A stretch of 64,000 nt of DNA from a phage. The translations under genes were made by a program, and so were the position numbers. Positions 5,372 through 63,502 of this stretch are shown one piece after another. Under the pieces are notes generated by a model that searched no databases, had not been told where the DNA came from, and saw only the letters and a list, made by a program, of their open reading frames with translations. Every line of letters starts with the position of its first letter. The stretch's first letter is position 1. The stretch lies in assembly GCA_014685065.1 (NCBI GenBank), contig GCA_014685065.1_4092.1. One strand, written 5' to 3'.

Positions 5372-5380
5372 AATATGTTA

Positions 5381-6871
5381 TTAAACTACAGAAACCCCAC
5401 TCATTGAAGGTGGAACGATTTGCTCAGCAATTAATAATAAATTAGTGACTGTAAACTTGCCACCATGTGACATTAACGTAATAGGTGTTCCATTAGTTAC
5501 TAGGTTACCATTTTCATCAACACTTAAAAATGTATTAAATGAAATAGTATCAACTGTGATTGTTGGTGTTCTAACTTGGTTAATATTATTAAATTGAGTA
5601 TTTGTAAAATTAATAGCAAAACTCATATTAGATGAACTAGTAGTCCATGTACCGTATATATTTAATTTGAAATTTAGAGATGAATTGAAATTATAAACAT
5701 TTAGCTTATTACTTGTTGTATTGAAGAAACTATCTAGTGTTCCACTAGTGGGGGTCAATGATTTAAGTATTTGAATTAAATTCTGTTCAATACCATCTGT
5801 GAATTGTATATTTAAGTTTGAATAATATAATTCTCTTTTTCTACGAACTAGGTTAGTAGTATTATTACCATTAACAAATAATCCAGAACTATCTGATGTT
5901 AATATATTACCAGAGGTATTACTTATTTTAGACGAAATAACATTACTGTCAATAGTTATACCATTTCCAGCAGTATATGAGGATGGTCCAGTCGGTACAT
6001 ATAACCCATTTACGTCAGTTGTTAAAGTATTTCCTGGTGTTGTGCTTATTTTGGTTGAAATTGTTTCTGAACTAATTGATATACCAGTACCACCAACGTA
6101 ATTTATTCTTGTATTAGGCACAAACAATCCAGTACTGTCAGTAGATAGTATATTACCAGAAGTAGAACTAATTTTAGCACTTATTATATCAGAATTAATT
6201 GAAATTCCGTTACCAGCATTATAAGTTACAGTATTGTTAGGAACAAATAAACCATTGCTAGTAGAAGATAATATATTTTCTGGCGTAGGGTCAACCTCAA
6301 CACTAATCACTTCATCACTAATTACAATCCCATTACCCGCATTGTACGTTATCGAATTATCAGGTACGAATAGACCCGTACTATCAGTTGTAAGGATATT
6401 TCCTAAAGATGTGCTTACTTTTGATGATATAATATTATTATCTATTTTAATACTGTCACTACCTGTATATGTTACTGTATTATCAGGTACATATAAACCA
6501 TCTTCGGCAATAGTAAGGATGTTATTAGGTGATGTACTTATTTTAGTTGAGATAGTATTATCACTTATTGTCACACCAGTGCCACCAGAATACACAATTG
6601 ATGTATTAGGAACATATAAACCATTAGAATCATTACTAAGAATATTTCCTTGTGTTGAACTGATTTTTGTTGATATTAAATTAGAGGTTATTGATATACC
6701 AGTACCACCTTGATAGTTAATAGTGTTATCTGGAACATATAAACCATCACTTTCATGAATTAAAATATTTTTATTTTTAGAACTAATATCAGGTACTGGA
6801 ATCTTACCTATTAGAACACCGTCATAACTGATATCACCATTTACAATAATATCTGTTCTTATATTATACAT
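5381..6871 (-). CDS. tail fibre protein with tandem ~30-aa repeats
   Basis: At least 9 tandem repeats of the pattern NILSxDSxGL(F/Y)VPxNxxxYxxGxGIxIxxxxISxKIS. Confidence 0.6.
   Translation of the reverse strand: MYNIRTDIIVNGDISYDGVLIGKIPVPDISSKNKNILIHESDGLYVPDNTINYQGGTGISITSNLISTKISSTQGNILSNDSNGLYVPNTSIVYSGGTGVTISDNTISTKISTSPNNILTIAEDGLYVPDNTVTYTGSDSIKIDNNIISSKVSTSLGNILTTDSTGLFVPDNSITYNAGNGIVISDEVISVEVDPTPENILSSTSNGLFVPNNTVTYNAGNGISINSDIISAKISSTSGNILSTDSTGLFVPNTRINYVGGTGISISSETISTKISTTPGNTLTTDVNGLYVPTGPSSYTAGNGITIDSNVISSKISNTSGNILTSDSSGLFVNGNNTTNLVRRKRELYYSNLNIQFTDGIEQNLIQILKSLTPTSGTLDSFFNTTSNKLNVYNFNSSLNFKLNIYGTWTTSSSNMSFAINFTNTQFNNINQVRTPTITVDTISFNTFLSVDENGNLVTNGTPITLMSHGGKFTVTNLLLIAEQIVPPSMSGVSVV
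5560..6780 (-). repeat. in-frame tandem repeat array (~90 bp unit) inside the fibre gene
   Basis: Periodic protein repeats map to this DNA span; the boundaries are approximate. Confidence 0.5.
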
Positions 6872-6887
6872 ATATTTTCCTTATATT

Positions 6888-6920
6888 GAAACAAATAAAG
6901 GCCAACCATAGTTGACCTTT
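6888..6920 (-). terminator. intrinsic terminator (minus strand), paralogous to 5341-5371
   Basis: AAAGGCCAAC-CATA-GTTGACCTTT hairpin with T-rich tract on the minus strand. Confidence 0.45.
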
Positions 6921-6928
6921 ATTATTAA

Positions 6929-7708
6929 TTAACGTATACGTTCAGGAATATCAATACCTTCATATACCCAAGTTGCAGCTTGTTGTGCTTTATAAATTGC
7001 ATCAGGATCTAAATCATTAACTGCATCAATTGCAGCACACTGACGATCACATTCAGCAAACAACTGTTCTACCATCGCAAATGCTTCAGTATATAGTTGT
7101 GTCATTTCAGCAGCAGATAGTTTAACTATTGCATCATCGAGAAATATAGAGACAGTTTCAGCACCAGAAGTTACTTGAGTATAATAATTAAGTAACATTT
7201 GACGACCAGCTAGATCAGTACTATAACGTTGTCCTTTAAACAAATAACCACGATTAATACGTTCACCACGTTCTGCTACAGTTCTGGATTTTAAATCATA
7301 TTTCACATCAGTGATATTCATATCAACGTAATGGTATGTTTTCAGTACTGTTAATGCTTTATACTCTGATGTAGCTTCTTCAATAAATTCAACAACTGGT
7401 TGATTATCATCTTTTAACTTAATAAACTCCAATGGTTGTTCAATAGCATTAACATTGCCAATATTTTTATACACTAACCACCAAAAACCTTCTTCTTTTC
7501 TAACAGCATCATTAGGTTCCACTGGAGAACCATCTTTACTTGAAATACCATAAAGAGTTCTAATATCACTATAAAGATAACGATAGGTTTGTGGATCTTC
7601 TGGTGTAGCACCTGGACGTTCTTTCAATCCTTTTACACCAATTGGGTTAGAAATAATGCTACCCAATTCATAATTTTCTTTTGAATTTCCTTTCACATAT
7701 GTGAACAT
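6929..7708 (-). CDS. hypothetical protein, possibly a tail fibre assembly/chaperone protein
   Basis: 259-aa non-repetitive protein wedged between fibre genes; the role is inferred from position only. Confidence 0.3.
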   Translation of the reverse strand: MFTYVKGNSKENYELGSIISNPIGVKGLKERPGATPEDPQTYRYLYSDIRTLYGISSKDGSPVEPNDAVRKEEGFWWLVYKNIGNVNAIEQPLEFIKLKDDNQPVVEFIEEATSEYKALTVLKTYHYVDMNITDVKYDLKSRTVAERGERINRGYLFKGQRYSTDLAGRQMLLNYYTQVTSGAETVSIFLDDAIVKLSAAEMTQLYTEAFAMVEQLFAECDRQCAAIDAVNDLDPDAIYKAQQAATWVYEGIDIPERIR

Positions 7709-39247: not shown

Positions 39248-39312
39248 AATTTATTCCTTTAAATCAGTAAAGTACTAGTTCAGTACTGGGAATTATATAT
39301 AGAAATATTTAT

Positions 39313-48265: not shown

Positions 48266-50413
48266 ATGCTAAACATTACACGTATATCTATGAGGAACTT
48301 CTTTTCATTTGGTAATGCACCACAATCAATTGATTTGAATGGTTCCGACATTTCATTAGTACTGGGTCAAAATAATGATGCAGTTATTGAAGGTGGTGAC
48401 AGTACCGGACGTCGAAATGGTGTAGGGAAAAGTGCTATTATTCAAGGATTAGTTTTTGGATTATTTGGTAAAAGTATTGGTAATGATATTAAAATTCCGA
48501 ACCTAGTCAATAAAACTAATGGCAAAAATTGTGAAGTAGTTGTAGAGTTTGAAAAAGATGGTGTACAATATCTGGTTGAACGTGGGAGAAGTCCCACGTA
48601 TTTCAATTTTGTTACTTTAGGGAAAGATAATAAAATTGAAGATGAATCAAGGGGAGAAAAGAAAGACACACAAGAAGATTTGAATGAAATTCTTGGTATA
48701 TCTCAATTATTATTTGAACATATTGTAGTACTGAATGCTAACGTTGAACCTTTCTTAGCTTTATCCACACAAAAACAACGTGATATGATAGAAGAACTTC
48801 TTGGAATAACACAGTTGACGGAAAAAGCTGAAATGCTAAAGGAGATGTATAAGGATACTAAACGTTTAGCCGAACAAGAAAAGTTCAAAAATGAAACTGT
48901 AGCTGCAAGTAATGAACGTATTCAAAAAAGTATTGAGGCACTACAAGAACAGGCAAACCAGTTTGAAATTGATAAAAATAATAGAGTATCTAAGTTAAAT
49001 GAAGAGTTGAATATATATAAAACTTTAGACTTTAATGACCTCTATGAAGCTGCGGACATAAAAGAGAAAGCTCTTATTCATAACGCAAAGCGTGGTGAAA
49101 TCGAACGCCGTGTACAAGAGTTGGCTTTAAAATTTGATGCATATGACCGTGAACTTGAAAGATCTAAAAGAGCATTAAATCTAAGCATTGATAAGCTAAA
49201 AACTATTGATATTAGTGCAGAATTGGAAAATCATAATGAGTTGGAGATATGGAAACAGTTAGAGGGTATTCTAAAAGAGAATAATAACCAAAAACGTTTC
49301 AAAGAACAAAAACTAAACTCACTAAAAATAGCTTTAAAAGGATATGAATGTTCAATTAATGCTGAAATTGACAAATTATCAACAGTTGAAAACAGCAAAT
49401 GTCCACTTTGTATGTCTGAATTGGAACATAACGAACATACTTCTTCAATTAAAGACAAAATCCAAAGTACTATTAATGATCTTCAAGCTAAAATTGATAG
49501 TTCTTCTTCTGAAATTGAAACATTACTTCAAGAAATTGATAGTATTGAGATTTTTGATATGCCACCTAAGCCTGTGACATATTATAATACACTTTCAGAA
49601 GCACAAATGCATGAACATAAGCTTCAAGAATTGGTCAGAAAGAGTGAAGAAGAACAAATAAACATCTATGCAAATGAACTTATGTCATCATATGATGAAC
49701 TTAACTCATATGAACTAATGGAAGTTCCAGATACATTAAACAAATATGAAGTTAAAGAGTTAGAAATGACTGTAAATTCATTATCACAGCAATTAGATCG
49801 TGAATTGAAGACTACTAACACATTTATTAGCCAAATTAATACCCTGAAGACTGATTCTTTAGTACCAATTGATTATAGCGACTATAATAATCTTGATAAA
49901 ATGTCAAATCACCAAGATTTCTTGGTTAAATTACTTTTAAACAAGGATTCTTATGTCCGTAAACGTATTATTGAGCAAAATATATCATATTTGAATACAC
50001 GACTTCAGTACTATATCGATATGTGCGGTTCTGAGCATAATGTTGTGTTTTTGAATGATTTGAGTGTTGAAATTGAGAAGAGTGGACAGTACTTTGACTA
50101 TAAACAGCTTAGTAGAGGTGAGCGTACAAGGGTAAACATCGCATTATCTTGTGCTTTCCGTGATACATATGAGTCATTATACCAAAGTATTAATATTCTT
50201 ATCATTGATGAGATGATTGACCAAGGTCTTGACTCAAGTGGTGTTCTACGTGTGTGGTCTATCTTCCAAGATATGGCTGCTGTACGTGGTAAGAACGTTT
50301 ATGCTATTTCCCACAGAGAAGAGTTACTATCTAAGACTGAAAAAATCCTCAAAGTTGTTAAAGAGGACGGTTTCAGTACTGTTGAATATGCAACCCTTGA
50401 TGATGTTTTCTAA
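48266..50413 (+). CDS. recombination ATPase subunit, SbcC/Rad50-like (T4 gp46-like)
   Basis: N-terminal Walker A NGVGKSAIIQGLVFGLFGKS, long central coiled-coil, C-terminal Walker B ILIIDEMIDQGLD. Confidence 0.8.
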   Translation: MLNITRISMRNFFSFGNAPQSIDLNGSDISLVLGQNNDAVIEGGDSTGRRNGVGKSAIIQGLVFGLFGKSIGNDIKIPNLVNKTNGKNCEVVVEFEKDGVQYLVERGRSPTYFNFVTLGKDNKIEDESRGEKKDTQEDLNEILGISQLLFEHIVVLNANVEPFLALSTQKQRDMIEELLGITQLTEKAEMLKEMYKDTKRLAEQEKFKNETVAASNERIQKSIEALQEQANQFEIDKNNRVSKLNEELNIYKTLDFNDLYEAADIKEKALIHNAKRGEIERRVQELALKFDAYDRELERSKRALNLSIDKLKTIDISAELENHNELEIWKQLEGILKENNNQKRFKEQKLNSLKIALKGYECSINAEIDKLSTVENSKCPLCMSELEHNEHTSSIKDKIQSTINDLQAKIDSSSSEIETLLQEIDSIEIFDMPPKPVTYYNTLSEAQMHEHKLQELVRKSEEEQINIYANELMSSYDELNSYELMEVPDTLNKYEVKELEMTVNSLSQQLDRELKTTNTFISQINTLKTDSLVPIDYSDYNNLDKMSNHQDFLVKLLLNKDSYVRKRIIEQNISYLNTRLQYYIDMCGSEHNVVFLNDLSVEIEKSGQYFDYKQLSRGERTRVNIALSCAFRDTYESLYQSINILIIDEMIDQGLDSSGVLRVWSIFQDMAAVRGKNVYAISHREELLSKTEKILKVVKEDGFSTVEYATLDDVF

Positions 50414-50424
50414 TTAAAGTTAAA

Positions 50425-50447
50425 GGGAGCCTTAGCTCCCTTTTTTT
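50425..50447. terminator. bidirectional intrinsic terminator
   Basis: GGGAGC-CTTA-GCTCCC hairpin followed by TTTTTTT; the stop codon of the minus-strand gene lies in the loop. Confidence 0.65.
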
Positions 50448-50923
50448 ATATCTACCATATTTAATTTACCGTCCTTAATTAGCTTTCTAGCTTGTTTAGT
50501 TCTTTCCTTGACGTTACCTCCAGGAACTACTCCTAAATCGCTTAGAATGGCGTTCTGCTGCGTTGCTGGAAGCCTTTTAAACTTAGCTACGTCAACGGTT
50601 AATGCCGTGTGGTGAATGACCTGCTCATCTTCTGGTATATGATTGTTCCTTTCAAGATAATCTGCCAGATTACGCAATACTTCATGTAATGGCTTATCAG
50701 TTAAATGACTTAGGCATCGTTTATATGAGTTTGCTACTCTCCCTTCCCATCCATTCACTTCGTTTTGAAGAACCTGCCTACAATGTTGATTTCCACCATG
50801 ATAATGGTCCAGTACTGGTTTTGTTATTTCTATACCAATTATAGGGTCAATCCCATTCTGCTTCTTTAATAGTTCATTTCGATAAGATGCTGCTTCTTTA
50901 GGATTTTTTAATCTCTTTTTCAT
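50432..50923 (-). CDS. hypothetical protein, possible HNH/EndoVII-like nuclease
   Basis: 163 aa with LDHYHGGNQHCRQVLQNEVNGWEG (DHxH...N...EG) loosely resembling beta-beta-alpha-Me nucleases; no zinc-binding Cys quartet, so weak. Confidence 0.3.
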   Translation of the reverse strand: MKKRLKNPKEAASYRNELLKKQNGIDPIIGIEITKPVLDHYHGGNQHCRQVLQNEVNGWEGRVANSYKRCLSHLTDKPLHEVLRNLADYLERNNHIPEDEQVIHHTALTVDVAKFKRLPATQQNAILSDLGVVPGGNVKERTKQARKLIKDGKLNMVDIKKGS

Positions 50924-50983
50924 AGCTGTTTGTCCTGTTTTGTTAAATAAAGTATATTAAAAAGTTTTGTGAGGTACAATAGA

Positions 50984-51931
50984 ATGGCTAAAATGACACA
51001 ACAACAATTTATAGATAAATCAATTAATCTACATGGTAGTATTTACACCTACAATAACACCGTGTATGTTAATGCACATCAACCAGTGTCTATTACATGT
51101 AAAATTCATGGTGACTTTACGGTAGTTCCTAATAAACATATTTCCGCAAAGCAAGGTTGTCCGGTTTGTTCTGATATTGCAAAGAAAGAACGTAAATCTA
51201 AAAAGTCACTGGAGTCATTCTTTACTGAAGCAAAAGAAGTACACGGTGATAAGTATGATTACTCTAAAGTGTTTTTCAACATTCGTTCAGAGAAAATTAC
51301 TATCATATGCAAAGAAGAAGGTCATGGTGAATTTAATCAGGTAGTTAGTAATCACCTAGCTGGACAGGGTTGCCCTGAATGCTCCAAAGCACTTATTGGT
51401 TTAAAGAAAAGAACACCAGAAGATGTATTCTTTGAAGATTGTAAGTACATTCATATGGATGCATACGACTACTCCAATACAAAATATAATGGTATGTATG
51501 AAACAATTACACCAGTATGCAAACGTCATGGAGAATTCACAGTACTGGCAACTAAACATTATCATAGAAAGCAAGGTTGTCCGGTTTGTTCTGACATGGA
51601 ACTAAAGTCAAGACCAGTTATTGAAATTCAGAATTTTTTAAAAGAGTATGATATAATATTTGAAATGGAAAAGAAGTTTGATGGTTGTAAAAATATAAAC
51701 CATTTACCATTTGATTTTTATATTCCTTCACTGAATCTTCTAATAGAGTATGATGGTATTCAACACTTCAAACCAATAGAGTACTTTGGTGGTAAACAAG
51801 CTTTAGCTGAACAGCAAAGAAATGATGAAATAAAAAATCAATTCTGTTTTAATAACAACATTACTCTTCTTAGAATAAAGTATTTCGAAGATCATATTAA
51901 AATCATCAAAGACTATATATCAAAACTTTAA
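50984..51931 (+). CDS. free-standing nuclease: three Cys/His repeat units plus C-terminal DUF559/Vsr-like PD-(D/E)XK domain (putative homing endonuclease)
   Basis: Three ~45-aa repeats (YxYS...C..HGxF......H....QGCPxCS) then LPFDFYIPSLNLLIEYDGIQHF...LLRIKYFE. ORF-track start is GTG 50969; ATG 50984 with GAGGT RBS preferred. Confidence 0.55.
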   Translation: MAKMTQQQFIDKSINLHGSIYTYNNTVYVNAHQPVSITCKIHGDFTVVPNKHISAKQGCPVCSDIAKKERKSKKSLESFFTEAKEVHGDKYDYSKVFFNIRSEKITIICKEEGHGEFNQVVSNHLAGQGCPECSKALIGLKKRTPEDVFFEDCKYIHMDAYDYSNTKYNGMYETITPVCKRHGEFTVLATKHYHRKQGCPVCSDMELKSRPVIEIQNFLKEYDIIFEMEKKFDGCKNINHLPFDFYIPSLNLLIEYDGIQHFKPIEYFGGKQALAEQQRNDEIKNQFCFNNNITLLRIKYFEDHIKIIKDYISKL

Positions 51932-51954
51932 AATATGATATAGTTTTTTTAGAA

Positions 51955-51986
51955 CCAAGTAATAAAAATGTTACTTGGGTTTTTTA
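51955..51986 (+). terminator. intrinsic terminator
   Basis: 8-bp stem CCAAGTAA/TTACTTGG with 8-nt loop followed by GTTTTTT. Confidence 0.6.
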
Positions 51987-52038
51987 TATGTGTAAAAGTT
52001 GGAACTAAGTACTTAATGAATATTTTTATAAAAATAGT

Positions 52039-52066
52039 GAGACAACTTTAAAGTTTGTGCTATAAT
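52039..52066 (+). promoter_or_regulatory. sigma70-type early promoter (GAGACA, 16 nt, TGcTATAAT) with no protein gene downstream
   Basis: Same architecture as the promoters at 801, 23342 and 46315. Confidence 0.5.
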
Positions 52067-52072
52067 GTTTGT

Positions 52073-52526
52073 TGTAGTAATGACAATCCTGTTGAATGCA
52101 GAAATGCATATAAATTAGAACCTGATCCTATCGAAAATGTAGATGGCAGATGAGCAGTTCAACAGTGCGATGAGCAAAAGAAACCCGTTAGATGTGGGCA
52201 TAGTTTGAACCCCTCACGGCAATGCGGCTCAATAAAGAACTCCGATAAGCATACAGAGAGTTCCTCGATAGACATATAAGGATCGCACCTTACCAGATTT
52301 GCTAAGGGAGTTTATTAAGTGATTTTAATAAACAGCCTGAAGTTTGATTGTATAGACTTTCAGGTGAGTGTCAGGATGATTAAGACTGACGACCGTTGCA
52401 CATGACTGCGATAGAGAGAAACAGAGCAACCCGCTTTCGTTCTTAATATATTTTTAAGAAATTCGCAATACAATAAATGCTGAAACCATCAGCGTCAAGA
52501 AATAGAGACTTCATTGTCTCTTTTTT
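52073..52526 (+). ncRNA. candidate structured noncoding RNA (~450 nt), identity unknown
   Basis: Bounded by the promoter above and an intrinsic terminator (stem 52504-52521 plus T-run); no ORF of 60 aa or more; GC-rich hairpins. Confidence 0.3.
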
Positions 52527-52740
52527 ATTGTCTTCATTCCCCTGCGGGGGGATGAAAATGTCCTCAACAAATCCCGTCAAGTATTAAATCTTTTAAAGTT
52601 CTTTATAATTAATTTAATTAAATGAATATGAGTTACGTAGTAACGAATATTCTTCAGCTAACGAATGAAATGAGTTAGATGAATCCAATAATATTAAAAT
52701 TAATCCTTTCATAATTCAATTCAAATAATTCTGTAGTTTA

Positions 52741-52771
52741 AAACCAAAAAAAACCAGCAACAATGTGCTGG
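52741..52771 (-). terminator. intrinsic terminator (minus strand)
   Basis: CCAGCA-6 nt-TGCTGG hairpin; minus strand reads hairpin then TTTTTTTTGG. Confidence 0.6.
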
Positions 52772-52782
52772 CTATATGAAAA

Positions 52783-52992
52783 TTAGTGCTTCTCGTTTTG
52801 TTTTTTAATTTTTTTATTAAAAGACTTAACTAATAAGTCTCTATCTATTAATGGCATATTAAGGAGTGTTCCATAGTCAATGTTATCCATATATACAGAA
52901 CATTCCATTAGTGCATTTTTGATTTCTGACTTATTCAGTTCTATCTCCTTCAGTACTTCTTGTATTTCTTCAGGAGATGACTGGAGAAGCAT
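52783..52992 (-). CDS. hypothetical small protein
   Basis: 69-aa ORF, start overlaps the stop of the upstream gene by 1 nt. Confidence 0.4.
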   Translation of the reverse strand: MLLQSSPEEIQEVLKEIELNKSEIKNALMECSVYMDNIDYGTLLNMPLIDRDLLVKSFNKKIKKQNEKH

Positions 52993-53828
52993 TACTCGAA
53001 AAAATGACTAGGATCATATTTTAGTCCATCAATTTCCCATTGATGATTACATCCATCACATTCTACTTCCATACTATGTGATACTCCAATTTCAAGTACT
53101 TCATCCATTTTTTCACGAATTAGTTTAAGTACTCCCTTCGATTGTTGTCCAAGCCATTCATTAATAAATTCTTTTTCAACTACTTCATCACCATCTGGTG
53201 TTATAATTTTTGCAATAACTCCACCGATCATGTCGAAGTTAAGTTGAGCCATGTTTTCAAATACTTCAGAAAATATTTTTACTTTTTCATCTTTATCAAT
53301 ATCAGCAGTTTCAAGAAACTTAGTCTTCTGTTGCTCACTGAACATGCGTTCAGCAAACGATGAATATTCTTTCCATGTCAGTGGTCTAAATTCTAAACGG
53401 AGTCCATTATCTAAATCAATTGATGGGATTTCTTCAAATGCTTGTGCAGTTTCAAGAAGATATGATAGATTACGCTCAAATCGACCTTCTTTTTCACATT
53501 CAGGACATACAACGTTAATATCATATGTTTCTTCTTTAGAAGCAACTTTAATAGCAATAAGAAGCATTTCAACGTCATTTACATACAACTCATCAGCGTC
53601 AATTACATTAGGAACACAGTTTTCAATAACACGGGATACTGCATCTCCGTTTAGTAACATATCGGGGGTATTAAGTGTCATTTCATCACGTGCACTACGT
53701 GCACAAACTCCACATTTGACACCTTTTGGACCTAGGACTCCTTCTTTATAAGGAATAACGCCGTTTGTAACTAACTTAGTACTGATCTCTTCAATTTTAG
53801 TGTACTTAGCAAGTGGATTCATAGCCAT
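52992..53828 (-). CDS. hypothetical Cys-rich protein (possible zinc-binding virion/assembly protein)
   Basis: 278 aa with CGVC, CPEC and CDGC pairs; preceded by GGAG RBS and a TATAAATA late-type motif. Confidence 0.45.
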   Translation of the reverse strand: MAMNPLAKYTKIEEISTKLVTNGVIPYKEGVLGPKGVKCGVCARSARDEMTLNTPDMLLNGDAVSRVIENCVPNVIDADELYVNDVEMLLIAIKVASKEETYDINVVCPECEKEGRFERNLSYLLETAQAFEEIPSIDLDNGLRLEFRPLTWKEYSSFAERMFSEQQKTKFLETADIDKDEKVKIFSEVFENMAQLNFDMIGGVIAKIITPDGDEVVEKEFINEWLGQQSKGVLKLIREKMDEVLEIGVSHSMEVECDGCNHQWEIDGLKYDPSHFFE

Positions 53829-62404: not shown

Positions 62405-63502
62405 ATGCCAAACGTAAGTATCAACAAAGAAGAGTTTATCAGCAAAATGACTGCTAAGTATGGTGAATTTGATTTCAGTACTTTAGTATTCAAAGCAAGT
62501 AAAACAACTGTGAAATGTAACAAGTGTGGAAAAGAAAACATAAAATCTGCACTTCGTCACATTGCATGTACATGTGCATCATGTTATTCAAACATGTCGC
62601 AACGTTCAAACAACGACACATTCATCAGCACGGTAGAAAATAAATTTGGTAAAGATAAATTCAAATTTGATAAACTAAATTACACTAACGCTATAACAAA
62701 AGTAACACTCTTTTGCACTGATGAAGAGCACAACGATTACTTTGAAATAACACCAAACAAATTTCTTTCTGGTAAGGGATGTCCTGTGTGTAATAAAAAT
62801 GAAGCATACAGTACTGAATCATTCACTGCAAAAGTAAAAGAAAACTATGGTGATGCATTGGATTTGACAAATACTGTTTATGTCAATCAGAAAACTAAAG
62901 TAACGGTTCATTGCACAAAAGGACATCACGACTGGACAGTAGATCCAAAAACTTTAATCGTCGGTAAAACTGGCTGTGGTACATGCTCTGGTAAAGGTGG
63001 ACGAAGTACTGAGCGTTTCATTGAACTAGTATCACCAATTCATAACCATAAGTATGATTATAGCTTGGTGGATTATACAACAAGTGAGAAGTATGTGGAT
63101 ATTGTGTGTCCGACGCATGGTGTTTTTTCCCAACAACCAAAAGCACATATGGCGGGTAAAGGATGTCCATCATGTGGTGAATATGGATATCAACCATCAA
63201 AACCTGGATATTTCTATGTTCAAAAACTAACTAACAATGACAAGACGGTGTACAAATATGGAATCACTGGTGATATGAAACGCCGTGTAAACGAACAAAG
63301 TCGTAATTCTGGGTTCGAACATGAAGTACTAGTAGAACGCTACTTTGAAGATGGAAATCAACCATTACTGTTGGAAAAGTTCATAAAGAAATACATTGAA
63401 AGTGGAGTAGTAAGTACTGAAGAGTTGCCGTCAGGATTTACTGAAACGTTTGATGAAAAGTATCTAAAATCTGTACTGGAAATTGTAAATAACTTTAAGT
63501 AA
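62405..63502 (+). CDS. free-standing nuclease: four Cys/His repeat units plus C-terminal GIY-YIG-like domain (putative homing endonuclease)
   Basis: Four repeats ending in GKGCPxC-type motifs, then GYFYVQKL...YKYGITGDMKRRVNEQ (GIY...YIG...R...E) at 63216-63275. Confidence 0.55.
   Translation: MPNVSINKEEFISKMTAKYGEFDFSTLVFKASKTTVKCNKCGKENIKSALRHIACTCASCYSNMSQRSNNDTFISTVENKFGKDKFKFDKLNYTNAITKVTLFCTDEEHNDYFEITPNKFLSGKGCPVCNKNEAYSTESFTAKVKENYGDALDLTNTVYVNQKTKVTVHCTKGHHDWTVDPKTLIVGKTGCGTCSGKGGRSTERFIELVSPIHNHKYDYSLVDYTTSEKYVDIVCPTHGVFSQQPKAHMAGKGCPSCGEYGYQPSKPGYFYVQKLTNNDKTVYKYGITGDMKRRVNEQSRNSGFEHEVLVERYFEDGNQPLLLEKFIKKYIESGVVSTEELPSGFTETFDEKYLKSVLEIVNNFK

Follow-up and report, generated by a model that had tools for sequence, protein, structure and literature searches.

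The DNA analysed here, a window of 64,000 nucleotides (contig GCA_014685065.1_4092.1 of GenBank assembly GCA_014685065.1), derives from a 121Q-like jumbo phage of the genus Asteriusvirus, with the Escherichia coli jumbo phages 121Q, PBECO4 and their relatives as its closest records. The locus under study holds two nuclease genes, one for endonuclease VII (endoVII) and one that is a putative free-standing homing endonuclease gene (HEG). A 6.5-kb query around it retrieved matches in 73 phage records. The gene order is late sigma factor, gp47-like, gp46-like, endoVII (minus strand), HEG (plus strand), a stretch free of open reading frames (ORFs), baseplate hub and portal. The features of the locus are as follows:

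50422–50443, both strands: bidirectional intrinsic terminator common to the convergent gp46-like and endoVII genes (terminator scan)
50432–50923, minus strand: endoVII, a predicted T4 gp49-type junction resolvase and packaging endonuclease of 163 amino acids, core gene (PHROG 423, fold match, conservation)
50495–50924, no strand: foreign, putatively co-converted tract inside endoVII, about 430 bp, 70–75% identical to 121Q amid 99–100% (sliding identity and alignment)
50925–52005, no strand: insertion relative to 121Q, 1081 bp in place of 58 bp of intergenic DNA, comprising a spacer, the HEG and the HEG terminator (blastn against 121Q)
50984–51931, plus strand: putative free-standing HEG of 315 amino acids (zinc ribbons and Vsr-like domain)
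51611–51928, plus strand: predicted Vsr-like nuclease domain of the HEG, approximately residues 210–315 (weak Pfam scores and fold search)
51955–51978, plus strand: terminator-like hairpin and T run at the 3' end of the HEG, inside the insertion (terminator scan)
52006–52066, plus strand: right junction, where 121Q-identical sequence resumes; it holds the predicted promoter of a non-coding RNA (ncRNA), with a -35 region and an extended -10 element, TGCTATAAT (blastn, promoter scan)

The original prediction, made from the sequence alone, had described two nuclease-like genes on opposite strands within 50432–51931, and both ORFs are present, at 50432–50923 (minus, 163 amino acids) and 50969–51931 (plus, 320 amino acids). 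It had also suspected the 163-residue protein, which contains the sequence LDHYHGGNQHC, to be EndoVII-like, and this is borne out by a match to the PHROG 423 profile 'endonuclease VII' (E 1.2e-30) and by a predicted fold that resembles T4 endonuclease VII along the whole chain. The AlphaFold model, computed with 29 homologues, has a predicted local distance difference test (pLDDT) score of 94, and Foldseek aligns it over 161 columns to the T4 enzyme (1e7l/1en7/2qnf). The match to 1e7l_A (template-modelling scores of 0.64/0.66, E 1.7e-7, probability 1.00) covers the two-domain gp49 fold in full. Residues D39, H40, H42, N57 and E60 align with the catalytic D40, H41, H43, N62 and E65 of the His-Me finger of T4 gp49; the first four are invariant among the 29 homologues, and E60 is conserved in at least 90%. 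No match to Pfam PF02945 was obtained at E ≤ 1, and several homologues (38–70% identity) carry precomputed PF02945 matches. A single-sequence search against solved structures gave nothing useful.

Each of the 59 related phage records found has the gene at this position, and its ratio of non-synonymous to synonymous substitution rates (dN/dS) is 0.076 relative to the 121Q allele, a value that denotes strong purifying selection. By sequence and predicted structure, 50432–50923 is the phage's T4 gp49-type endoVII, and a core rather than a mobile gene, because it is found in all relatives, has the full gp49 fold and is under strong purifying selection. Branched-DNA cleavage and a role in packaging are predicted indirectly, from this conservation and the dN/dS value. 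The structural zinc site of T4 gp49, which consists of the four cysteines C23, C26, C58 and C61, has no cysteine counterpart here; the aligned positions are D26, I29, Q53 and V56, and D26, P27 and I28 are nearly invariant within the clade. The endoVII of this phage group may therefore be a zinc-free variant. In RaK2-like phages, endoVII has been annotated as a gp49 homologue (PMC5259590). F-CphI is a homing endonuclease with an EndoVII motif, which has a sporadic distribution and carries the motif at the C-terminus of a different architecture (PMC6083498). A reading of the 163-residue protein as an enzyme of the F-CphI type is ruled out by its presence in all relatives, its N-terminal motif and its full gp49 fold. 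Deletions inside or across endoVII were seen in the Salmonella phages SD-15_S21 and SD-1_S14 (also SD-2_S15 and SD-6_S16), members of Asteriusvirus with genomes of 310–326 kb. Relative to the window, 50626–50778 is deleted in SD-15_S21, and 50585–52047 in SD-1_S14, with a 10-bp overlap at the junction. These are either genuine mutants devoid of the resolvase or assembly errors.

The plus-strand gene may begin at GTG 50969 (50969–51931, 320 amino acids) or at ATG 50984 (315 amino acids). The latter appears likelier, because a GAGG ribosome-binding site precedes it and gene callers chose the ATG in 9 other contigs. Three CHCC zinc-ribbon modules (C39/H42/C59/C62, C109/H114/C130/C133 and C179/H182/C199/C202) form the N-terminal part of the protein, where a NUMOD or helix-turn-helix (HTH) region is absent. 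The original prediction of a nuclease with DUF559 repeats holds as far as the nuclease is concerned; the repeats, however, are zinc ribbons (Pfam DUF723, E 4e-7; DUF4379, E 4e-6), and the DUF559/DUF2726-like, that is Vsr-like, domain occurs once, at the C-terminus, and scores weakly in Pfam (E 0.16 and 1.4e-3). The predicted model (pLDDT 90.5) displays a Vsr-like nuclease fold in the fold search. Residues D244, E255, H261 and D281 and all 12 zinc ligands are invariant in 30 HEG homologues, and the D244–H261 spacing equals the D196–H213 spacing of I-Bth0305I (PMC3239194), a comparison made by residue spacing only. The reading frame is intact, with a dN/dS of 0.09 relative to the copy in phage ECO103. 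An NCBIfam search gave no match. The family comprises more than 7400 homologues, with matches in 1037 phage records. Zinc-ribbon repeats of this type have been described as DNA-binding modules of T5orf172 homing endonucleases (PMC10448857), and the Hef enzymes of T4-related phages have been reported as members of the EDxHD family of I-Bth0305I (PMC3239194). The 315-residue gene is accordingly best described as a putative free-standing HEG of the Vsr-like (EDxHD) type, whose product would be expected to cut DNA.

Comparison with relatives defined the boundaries of the indel, with 50925–52005 standing in place of 58 bp of 121Q. In blastn against 121Q, the left block stops at 50924, and the right block starts at 52006 with 99.96% identity over 2495 bp. 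The left flank is approximately 100% identical back to 46500, except for 50495–50924, where identity falls to 70–75%. The tract may extend slightly farther to the left, because four isolated mismatches lie at 50401–50480. By these alignments, the HEG brought with it foreign sequence for most of endoVII, because the drop at 50495–50924 is enclosed by flanks of nearly complete identity. The most telling signal at the locus, overlooked in the original prediction, is that the endoVII allele is itself foreign and would have been co-converted with the HEG. The window and 121Q are 97.7% identical over the 64 kb in the aligned parts, and identity is below 90% in three places only: the endoVII/HEG locus, the surroundings of a second insertion, and a tail-fibre gene. 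Three large indels separate the two phages, at 5374–6896 (+1.5 kb), at 39263–39295 (an HNH gene of 121Q is missing), and beside endoVII (+1081 bp).

The same pattern was found in two other near-isogenic comparisons. ECO103 4-12-1, aligned with 121Q, has flanks of 99–100% identity. Its divergent endoVII tract measures about 325 bp, some 80 bp on the right-hand side of the HEG also diverge, and its cassette is only 74–93% identical to that of the window. In another genus, Munch, which carries the HEG, and 7t3, which does not, have flanks of 100% identity, an endoVII of 67–89% identity and a sharp right junction. A replaced endoVII segment accompanies the HEG in all three comparisons, and the left crossover points differ. 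The HEG is thus present or absent at one fixed site with clean boundaries: four related phage records carry it here, and most do not. Among 17 contigs with the exact endoVII allele of the window, the HEG is on all 9 that were displayed. On some of these contigs the HEG shares 93% identity with the window type and likewise with the ECO103 type, and looks like a recombinant of the two variants. The HEG's own terminator is also found in the ECO103 cassette, with another loop. The near-identity of the flanks to 121Q implies a recent transfer. The contigs L024–L032 show the exact genotype of the window (endoVII allele and HEG, 99.4–99.8% identical over 6.5 kb); they include contigs about 350 kb long that were deposited as part of E. 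coli genome assemblies, and others assembled from public read sets. The phage is thus carried along with E. coli isolates that have been sequenced.

The position of the HEG is conserved well beyond these pairs. All close homologues (46–88% amino-acid identity, seven loci) lie between endoVII and the baseplate-hub gene; they belong to ECO103/EC22.5-2, Munch, fENko-Kae01 and three metagenomic jumbo-phage contigs. The seven HEG-carrying loci represent about six independent lineages, Munch and fENko-Kae01 being identical. Around the catalytic N57 and E60, endoVII reads NGWEGRV in all seven, and NAWEGKV or NAFEGKV in the nearest relatives that lack the HEG. The nucleotides fixed between the two groups are 50833, 50832, 50751, 50739 and 50715 (codons 31, 58, 62 and 70); the scan gave no more than these five positions, in two clusters, an insufficient number for delimiting a target site. 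NGWEGRV was rejected as a strict indicator of the presence of the HEG, since UE-S1, EJP2, GAP32 and Yen9-04 have the allele and no HEG. UE-S1 is 121Q-like in the first 13 endoVII codons and the spacer, a pattern that loss of the HEG by recombination would leave.

The terminator shared by endoVII and the gp46-like gene is a 9-bp hairpin, AAAGGGAGC-CTTA-GCTCCCTTT, followed by a T run and scored on both strands. It is one of 7 terminator-like sites in 50000–53200, where 1.0 would be expected. The endoVII stop codon (TTA on the plus strand, 50432–50434) does fall inside the CTTA loop, as was originally noted, although the hairpin spans 50422–50443 rather than 50425–50447. The last four endoVII codons (KKGS) are encoded by the right arm of the stem and the T run. 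The arrangement recurs in 17 of the 18 loci examined, in at least five phage groups; the 18 loci span Asteriusvirus, Munch/7t3, RaK2 (Alcyoneusvirus), GAP32 (Mimasvirus), Yen9-04 (Eneladusvirus) and three metagenomic contigs. As judged from this distribution, the stop in the loop is the ancestral, compact layout of convergent genes with a common terminator, not an insertion scar.

A second site of insertion lies at the other end of endoVII. A T5orf172/MUG113 gene of 340–343 amino acids is located at the 3' end of endoVII in TH47, in Klebsiella phages of the RaK2 group and in the metagenomic contig L016, and a T5orf172 homologue directly adjoins endoVII in all 11 records that have one. The insertion falls within the last endoVII codons and leaves endoVII with a KRDxK end; the terminator then serves the inserted gene, whose stop codon lies in the hairpin loop (this gene ends in KKGA in TH47). 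The TH47 coordinates are as follows:

L005 2929–3951: T5orf172 gene of TH47

Phage ph0011 (L023 2380–2490) has lost about 905 bp and keeps only the final 115 bp or so of the T5orf172 gene (3' end), together with the hairpin; its endoVII still ends in KRDTK, as in carriers of the element. This remnant is, by its sequence, a decayed copy that represents the loss phase of the life cycle of the element. Both elements flank endoVII in contig L016, where the C-terminal part of endoVII is of the RaK2 type and the N-terminal part is of the HEG-linked type. Yen9-04 has a methyltransferase gene in the same interval. The suspicion of an insertion-prone region is upheld by the absence of the HEG from 121Q and most relatives, by the T5orf172 gene at the opposite end and by the methyltransferase of Yen9-04. 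From the gene content of these relatives, the endoVII region is an insertion hot spot in which selfish nuclease genes, as classified here, flank a fixed core gene. HEGs that bracket essential genes have been described (PMC10448857).

With both proteins identified, the presence/absence polymorphism bounded exactly, foreign endoVII sequence seen in three independent near-isogenic pairs and the HEG lineage faithful to one site, we interpret the locus as a probable case of intronless homing with co-conversion by a free-standing HEG next to the gene for a core resolvase. When two related phages infect the same cell, the enzyme would cut the HEG-less allele; recognition of a long DNA site is probably the task of the three zinc-ribbon modules, and cutting that of the Vsr-like domain. 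The expected position of the cut is the 5' two-thirds of endoVII or its vicinity, or else the short upstream spacer. The break would then be resected and repaired from the HEG-carrying genome, a repair that would copy the HEG plus the adjacent divergent endoVII sequence. Crossovers would occur at the first well-conserved stretches, namely the 3' end of endoVII and the terminator on the left, and the ncRNA promoter on the right. In intronless homing, cleavage sites are distant from the gene and flanking markers are co-converted, and junction resolvases are a class of enzyme used in homing repair (PMC2988022).

Several points weigh against this interpretation. DNA cutting, cutting of the HEG-less allele, the position of the cut and preferential inheritance are steps that we infer. 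Neither a single-sequence search nor a 30-sequence profile search linked the HEG to solved structures, 3r3p included, and predicted fold alone connects it with I-Bth0305I. The crossovers fall at the nearest conserved blocks, as ordinary homologous recombination between co-infecting phages would give, and the shape of the tract may reflect available homology rather than distance from a cut, because the crossovers lie where conservation rises. On its right side, the HEG has hardly any conversion tract. The search yielded no donor genome that combines this cassette with a divergent background (outside the genotype, endoVII is matched at 82.7% at best), and alleles of the NGWEGRV type also exist in the four HEG-less phages named above.

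Some of these points would suit a nuclease that does not propagate itself and performs another service for the phage, such as cutting the DNA of a competitor phage, a satellite or the host, with the patchy distribution and the linked endoVII allele resulting from modular recombination and selection. General recombination gives crossovers at conserved blocks, the zinc-finger domains associated with HEGs do serve in phage–satellite conflict (PMC10448857), the gene is under purifying selection, and NGWEGRV-type alleles exist where it is missing. This explanation is nevertheless unlikely. The gene lineage is confined to one intergenic site across the seven loci, at 46–88% amino-acid identity, a fidelity for which benefit alone is inadequate, and the one-sided replacement of endoVII recurs in three near-identical pairs. 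That the HEG is instead a decaying passenger that no longer cuts, so that the pattern records past events only, seems very improbable. The activity of its product is a prediction, and the life cycle of homing genes includes loss of function, as the T5orf172 remnant kept by ph0011 illustrates. The frame is intact, however, the zinc ligands and catalytic residues are kept, dN/dS is 0.09, the flanks nearly identical to 121Q imply a recent transfer, and recombinant HEG variants circulate.

The original prediction had the minus-strand gene itself inserted against an existing terminator, a scenario in which both nuclease genes would be accessory. The stop codon in the terminator loop, the existence of EndoVII-motif homing endonucleases such as F-CphI (PMC6083498) and the foreign character of the allele relative to 121Q could each be taken in its favour. 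We consider it scarcely credible, and the claim does not stand: the gene is at the same position in 59 of 59 related records, has the full two-domain T4 gp49 fold and a dN/dS of 0.076, and shares the stop-in-loop arrangement (17 of 18 loci) across at least five phage groups, so that no recent placement of endoVII against an older terminator is indicated. What moved is an allele of the resident gene.

Within the preferred reading of intronless homing, a more specific and tentative possibility concerns the target. Homing enzymes often target sequence that encodes active sites (PMC2988022), and the split between NGWEGRV and NAWEGKV fits this habit; it is not proof, because four HEG-less phages have NGWEGRV. 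The HEG might recognise the endoVII stretch that encodes the catalytic N57–E60 (approximately 50710–50760), with NAWEGKV as the susceptible and NGWEGRV as the immune form, and endoVII might be a one-gene 'HEG island' contested at its two ends, by the Vsr-like element at the 5' end and by the T5orf172 element at the 3' end. If true, this rivalry would be the force behind the mosaic endoVII genes of the different jumbo-phage genera.

The ORF-free locus to the right of the HEG contains a predicted structured RNA of about 450 nt (52067–52530, plus strand), with an extended -10 promoter at 52037–52066 and an intrinsic terminator at 52504–52521, that is conserved in 10 jumbo phages of several genera. 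RNAalifold predicts 86 pairs, among them a long-range closing helix; compensatory double changes are seen in 30 pairs, and hardly any pair is broken; the z-score of the minimum free energy is -2.78. No match was found in Rfam 15, and neither Rfam nor ARAGORN identified a tRNA or tmRNA. The conserved motif is absent from RaK2, L016 and Yen9-04. The stop codon of the HEG abuts or overlaps the -10 box of the RNA in Munch and L017, and lies about 17 nt upstream of it in L018. This RNA looks more novel than the HEG/endoVII finding.

Elsewhere in the window, the extra 1.5 kb at 5374–6896 relative to 121Q encodes a highly repetitive tail-fibre-like protein of 496 amino acids (5381–6871, minus strand), and the adjacent 6900–7500 is 78–87% identical to 121Q, which makes it the second combination of an insertion and a divergent flank in the window. 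Another HEG was ruled out here by the repetitive tail-fibre-like nature of the gene, and the insertion is probably a host-range module. At 39263–39295, gene 584 of 121Q ('HNH endonuclease, protein associated with group I intron', 769 bp) is missing and 33 bp alone separate the flanking baseplate genes, another mobile-nuclease polymorphism between the two phages. Directly after the major capsid gene, a 365-residue ORF (62405–63502, plus strand) has zinc-ribbon repeats of the HEG kind, at 30–35% identity over several repeats. It is the counterpart of 121Q gp604 'endonuclease', so that both phages carry a paralogous HEG-like gene.

The HEG and the associated co-conversion are well explained by existing knowledge; they add one more Vsr-like free-standing homing endonuclease, accompanied by a classic trace of co-conversion, to a type of system already known. 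For RaK2-like jumbo phages, the locus documents intronless homing clearly as it occurs in nature, with three independent acquisitions, sharp boundaries and near-identical genomes; in the literature searched, the mobile nucleases of these phages are listed, not analysed. It also suggests a likely role and a target region for a very large uncharacterised family that combines zinc-ribbon repeats with a Vsr-like domain, an architecture of which the literature searched holds no experimentally studied member. EndoVII and nearby markers would be poor phylogenetic markers in these phages. For annotation, the 163-residue gene becomes endonuclease VII, and the 315-residue gene a Vsr-like homing endonuclease, not 'HNH'.

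Among known systems, the closest to the resolvase gene is T4 endonuclease VII (gp49; PDB 1en7, 1e7l, 2qnf), with which it shares the full-length fold, the D-H-x-H ... N ... E catalytic residues and the status of a core gene beside the gp46/gp47 recombination nuclease genes. It differs in that it is only about 20–27% identical, has no PF02945 match and has its zinc cysteines replaced. The putative HEG is free-standing, whereas I-Bth0305I (PDB 3r3p) is intron-encoded, and unlike Vsr-like homing endonucleases of the I-Bth0305I and Hef types it has CHCC zinc ribbons (DUF723/DUF4379) in place of NUMOD/HTH. The same kind of repeated zinc-finger module occurs in the T5orf172 HEGs with CapR/DUF723/DUF4379 zinc fingers (Barth, Dunham and Seed 2023); here, by contrast, the array is joined to a Vsr-like domain, and the T5orf172 element is absent from the window. 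As in the 'HEG islands' of the same authors, two HEGs bracket an essential gene in L016, but the 'island' is a single 0.5-kb gene instead of more than 10 kb. The locus corresponds most closely to intronless homing by free-standing HEGs (PMC2988022, PMC2790892), in its intergenic position beside a conserved gene, its patchy distribution among close relatives and the co-conversion of the neighbouring gene. In the known cases the nucleases are GIY-YIG or HNH, whereas here a Vsr-like nuclease, with predicted cleavage and putative marker exclusion, would home in a jumbo RaK2-like phage.

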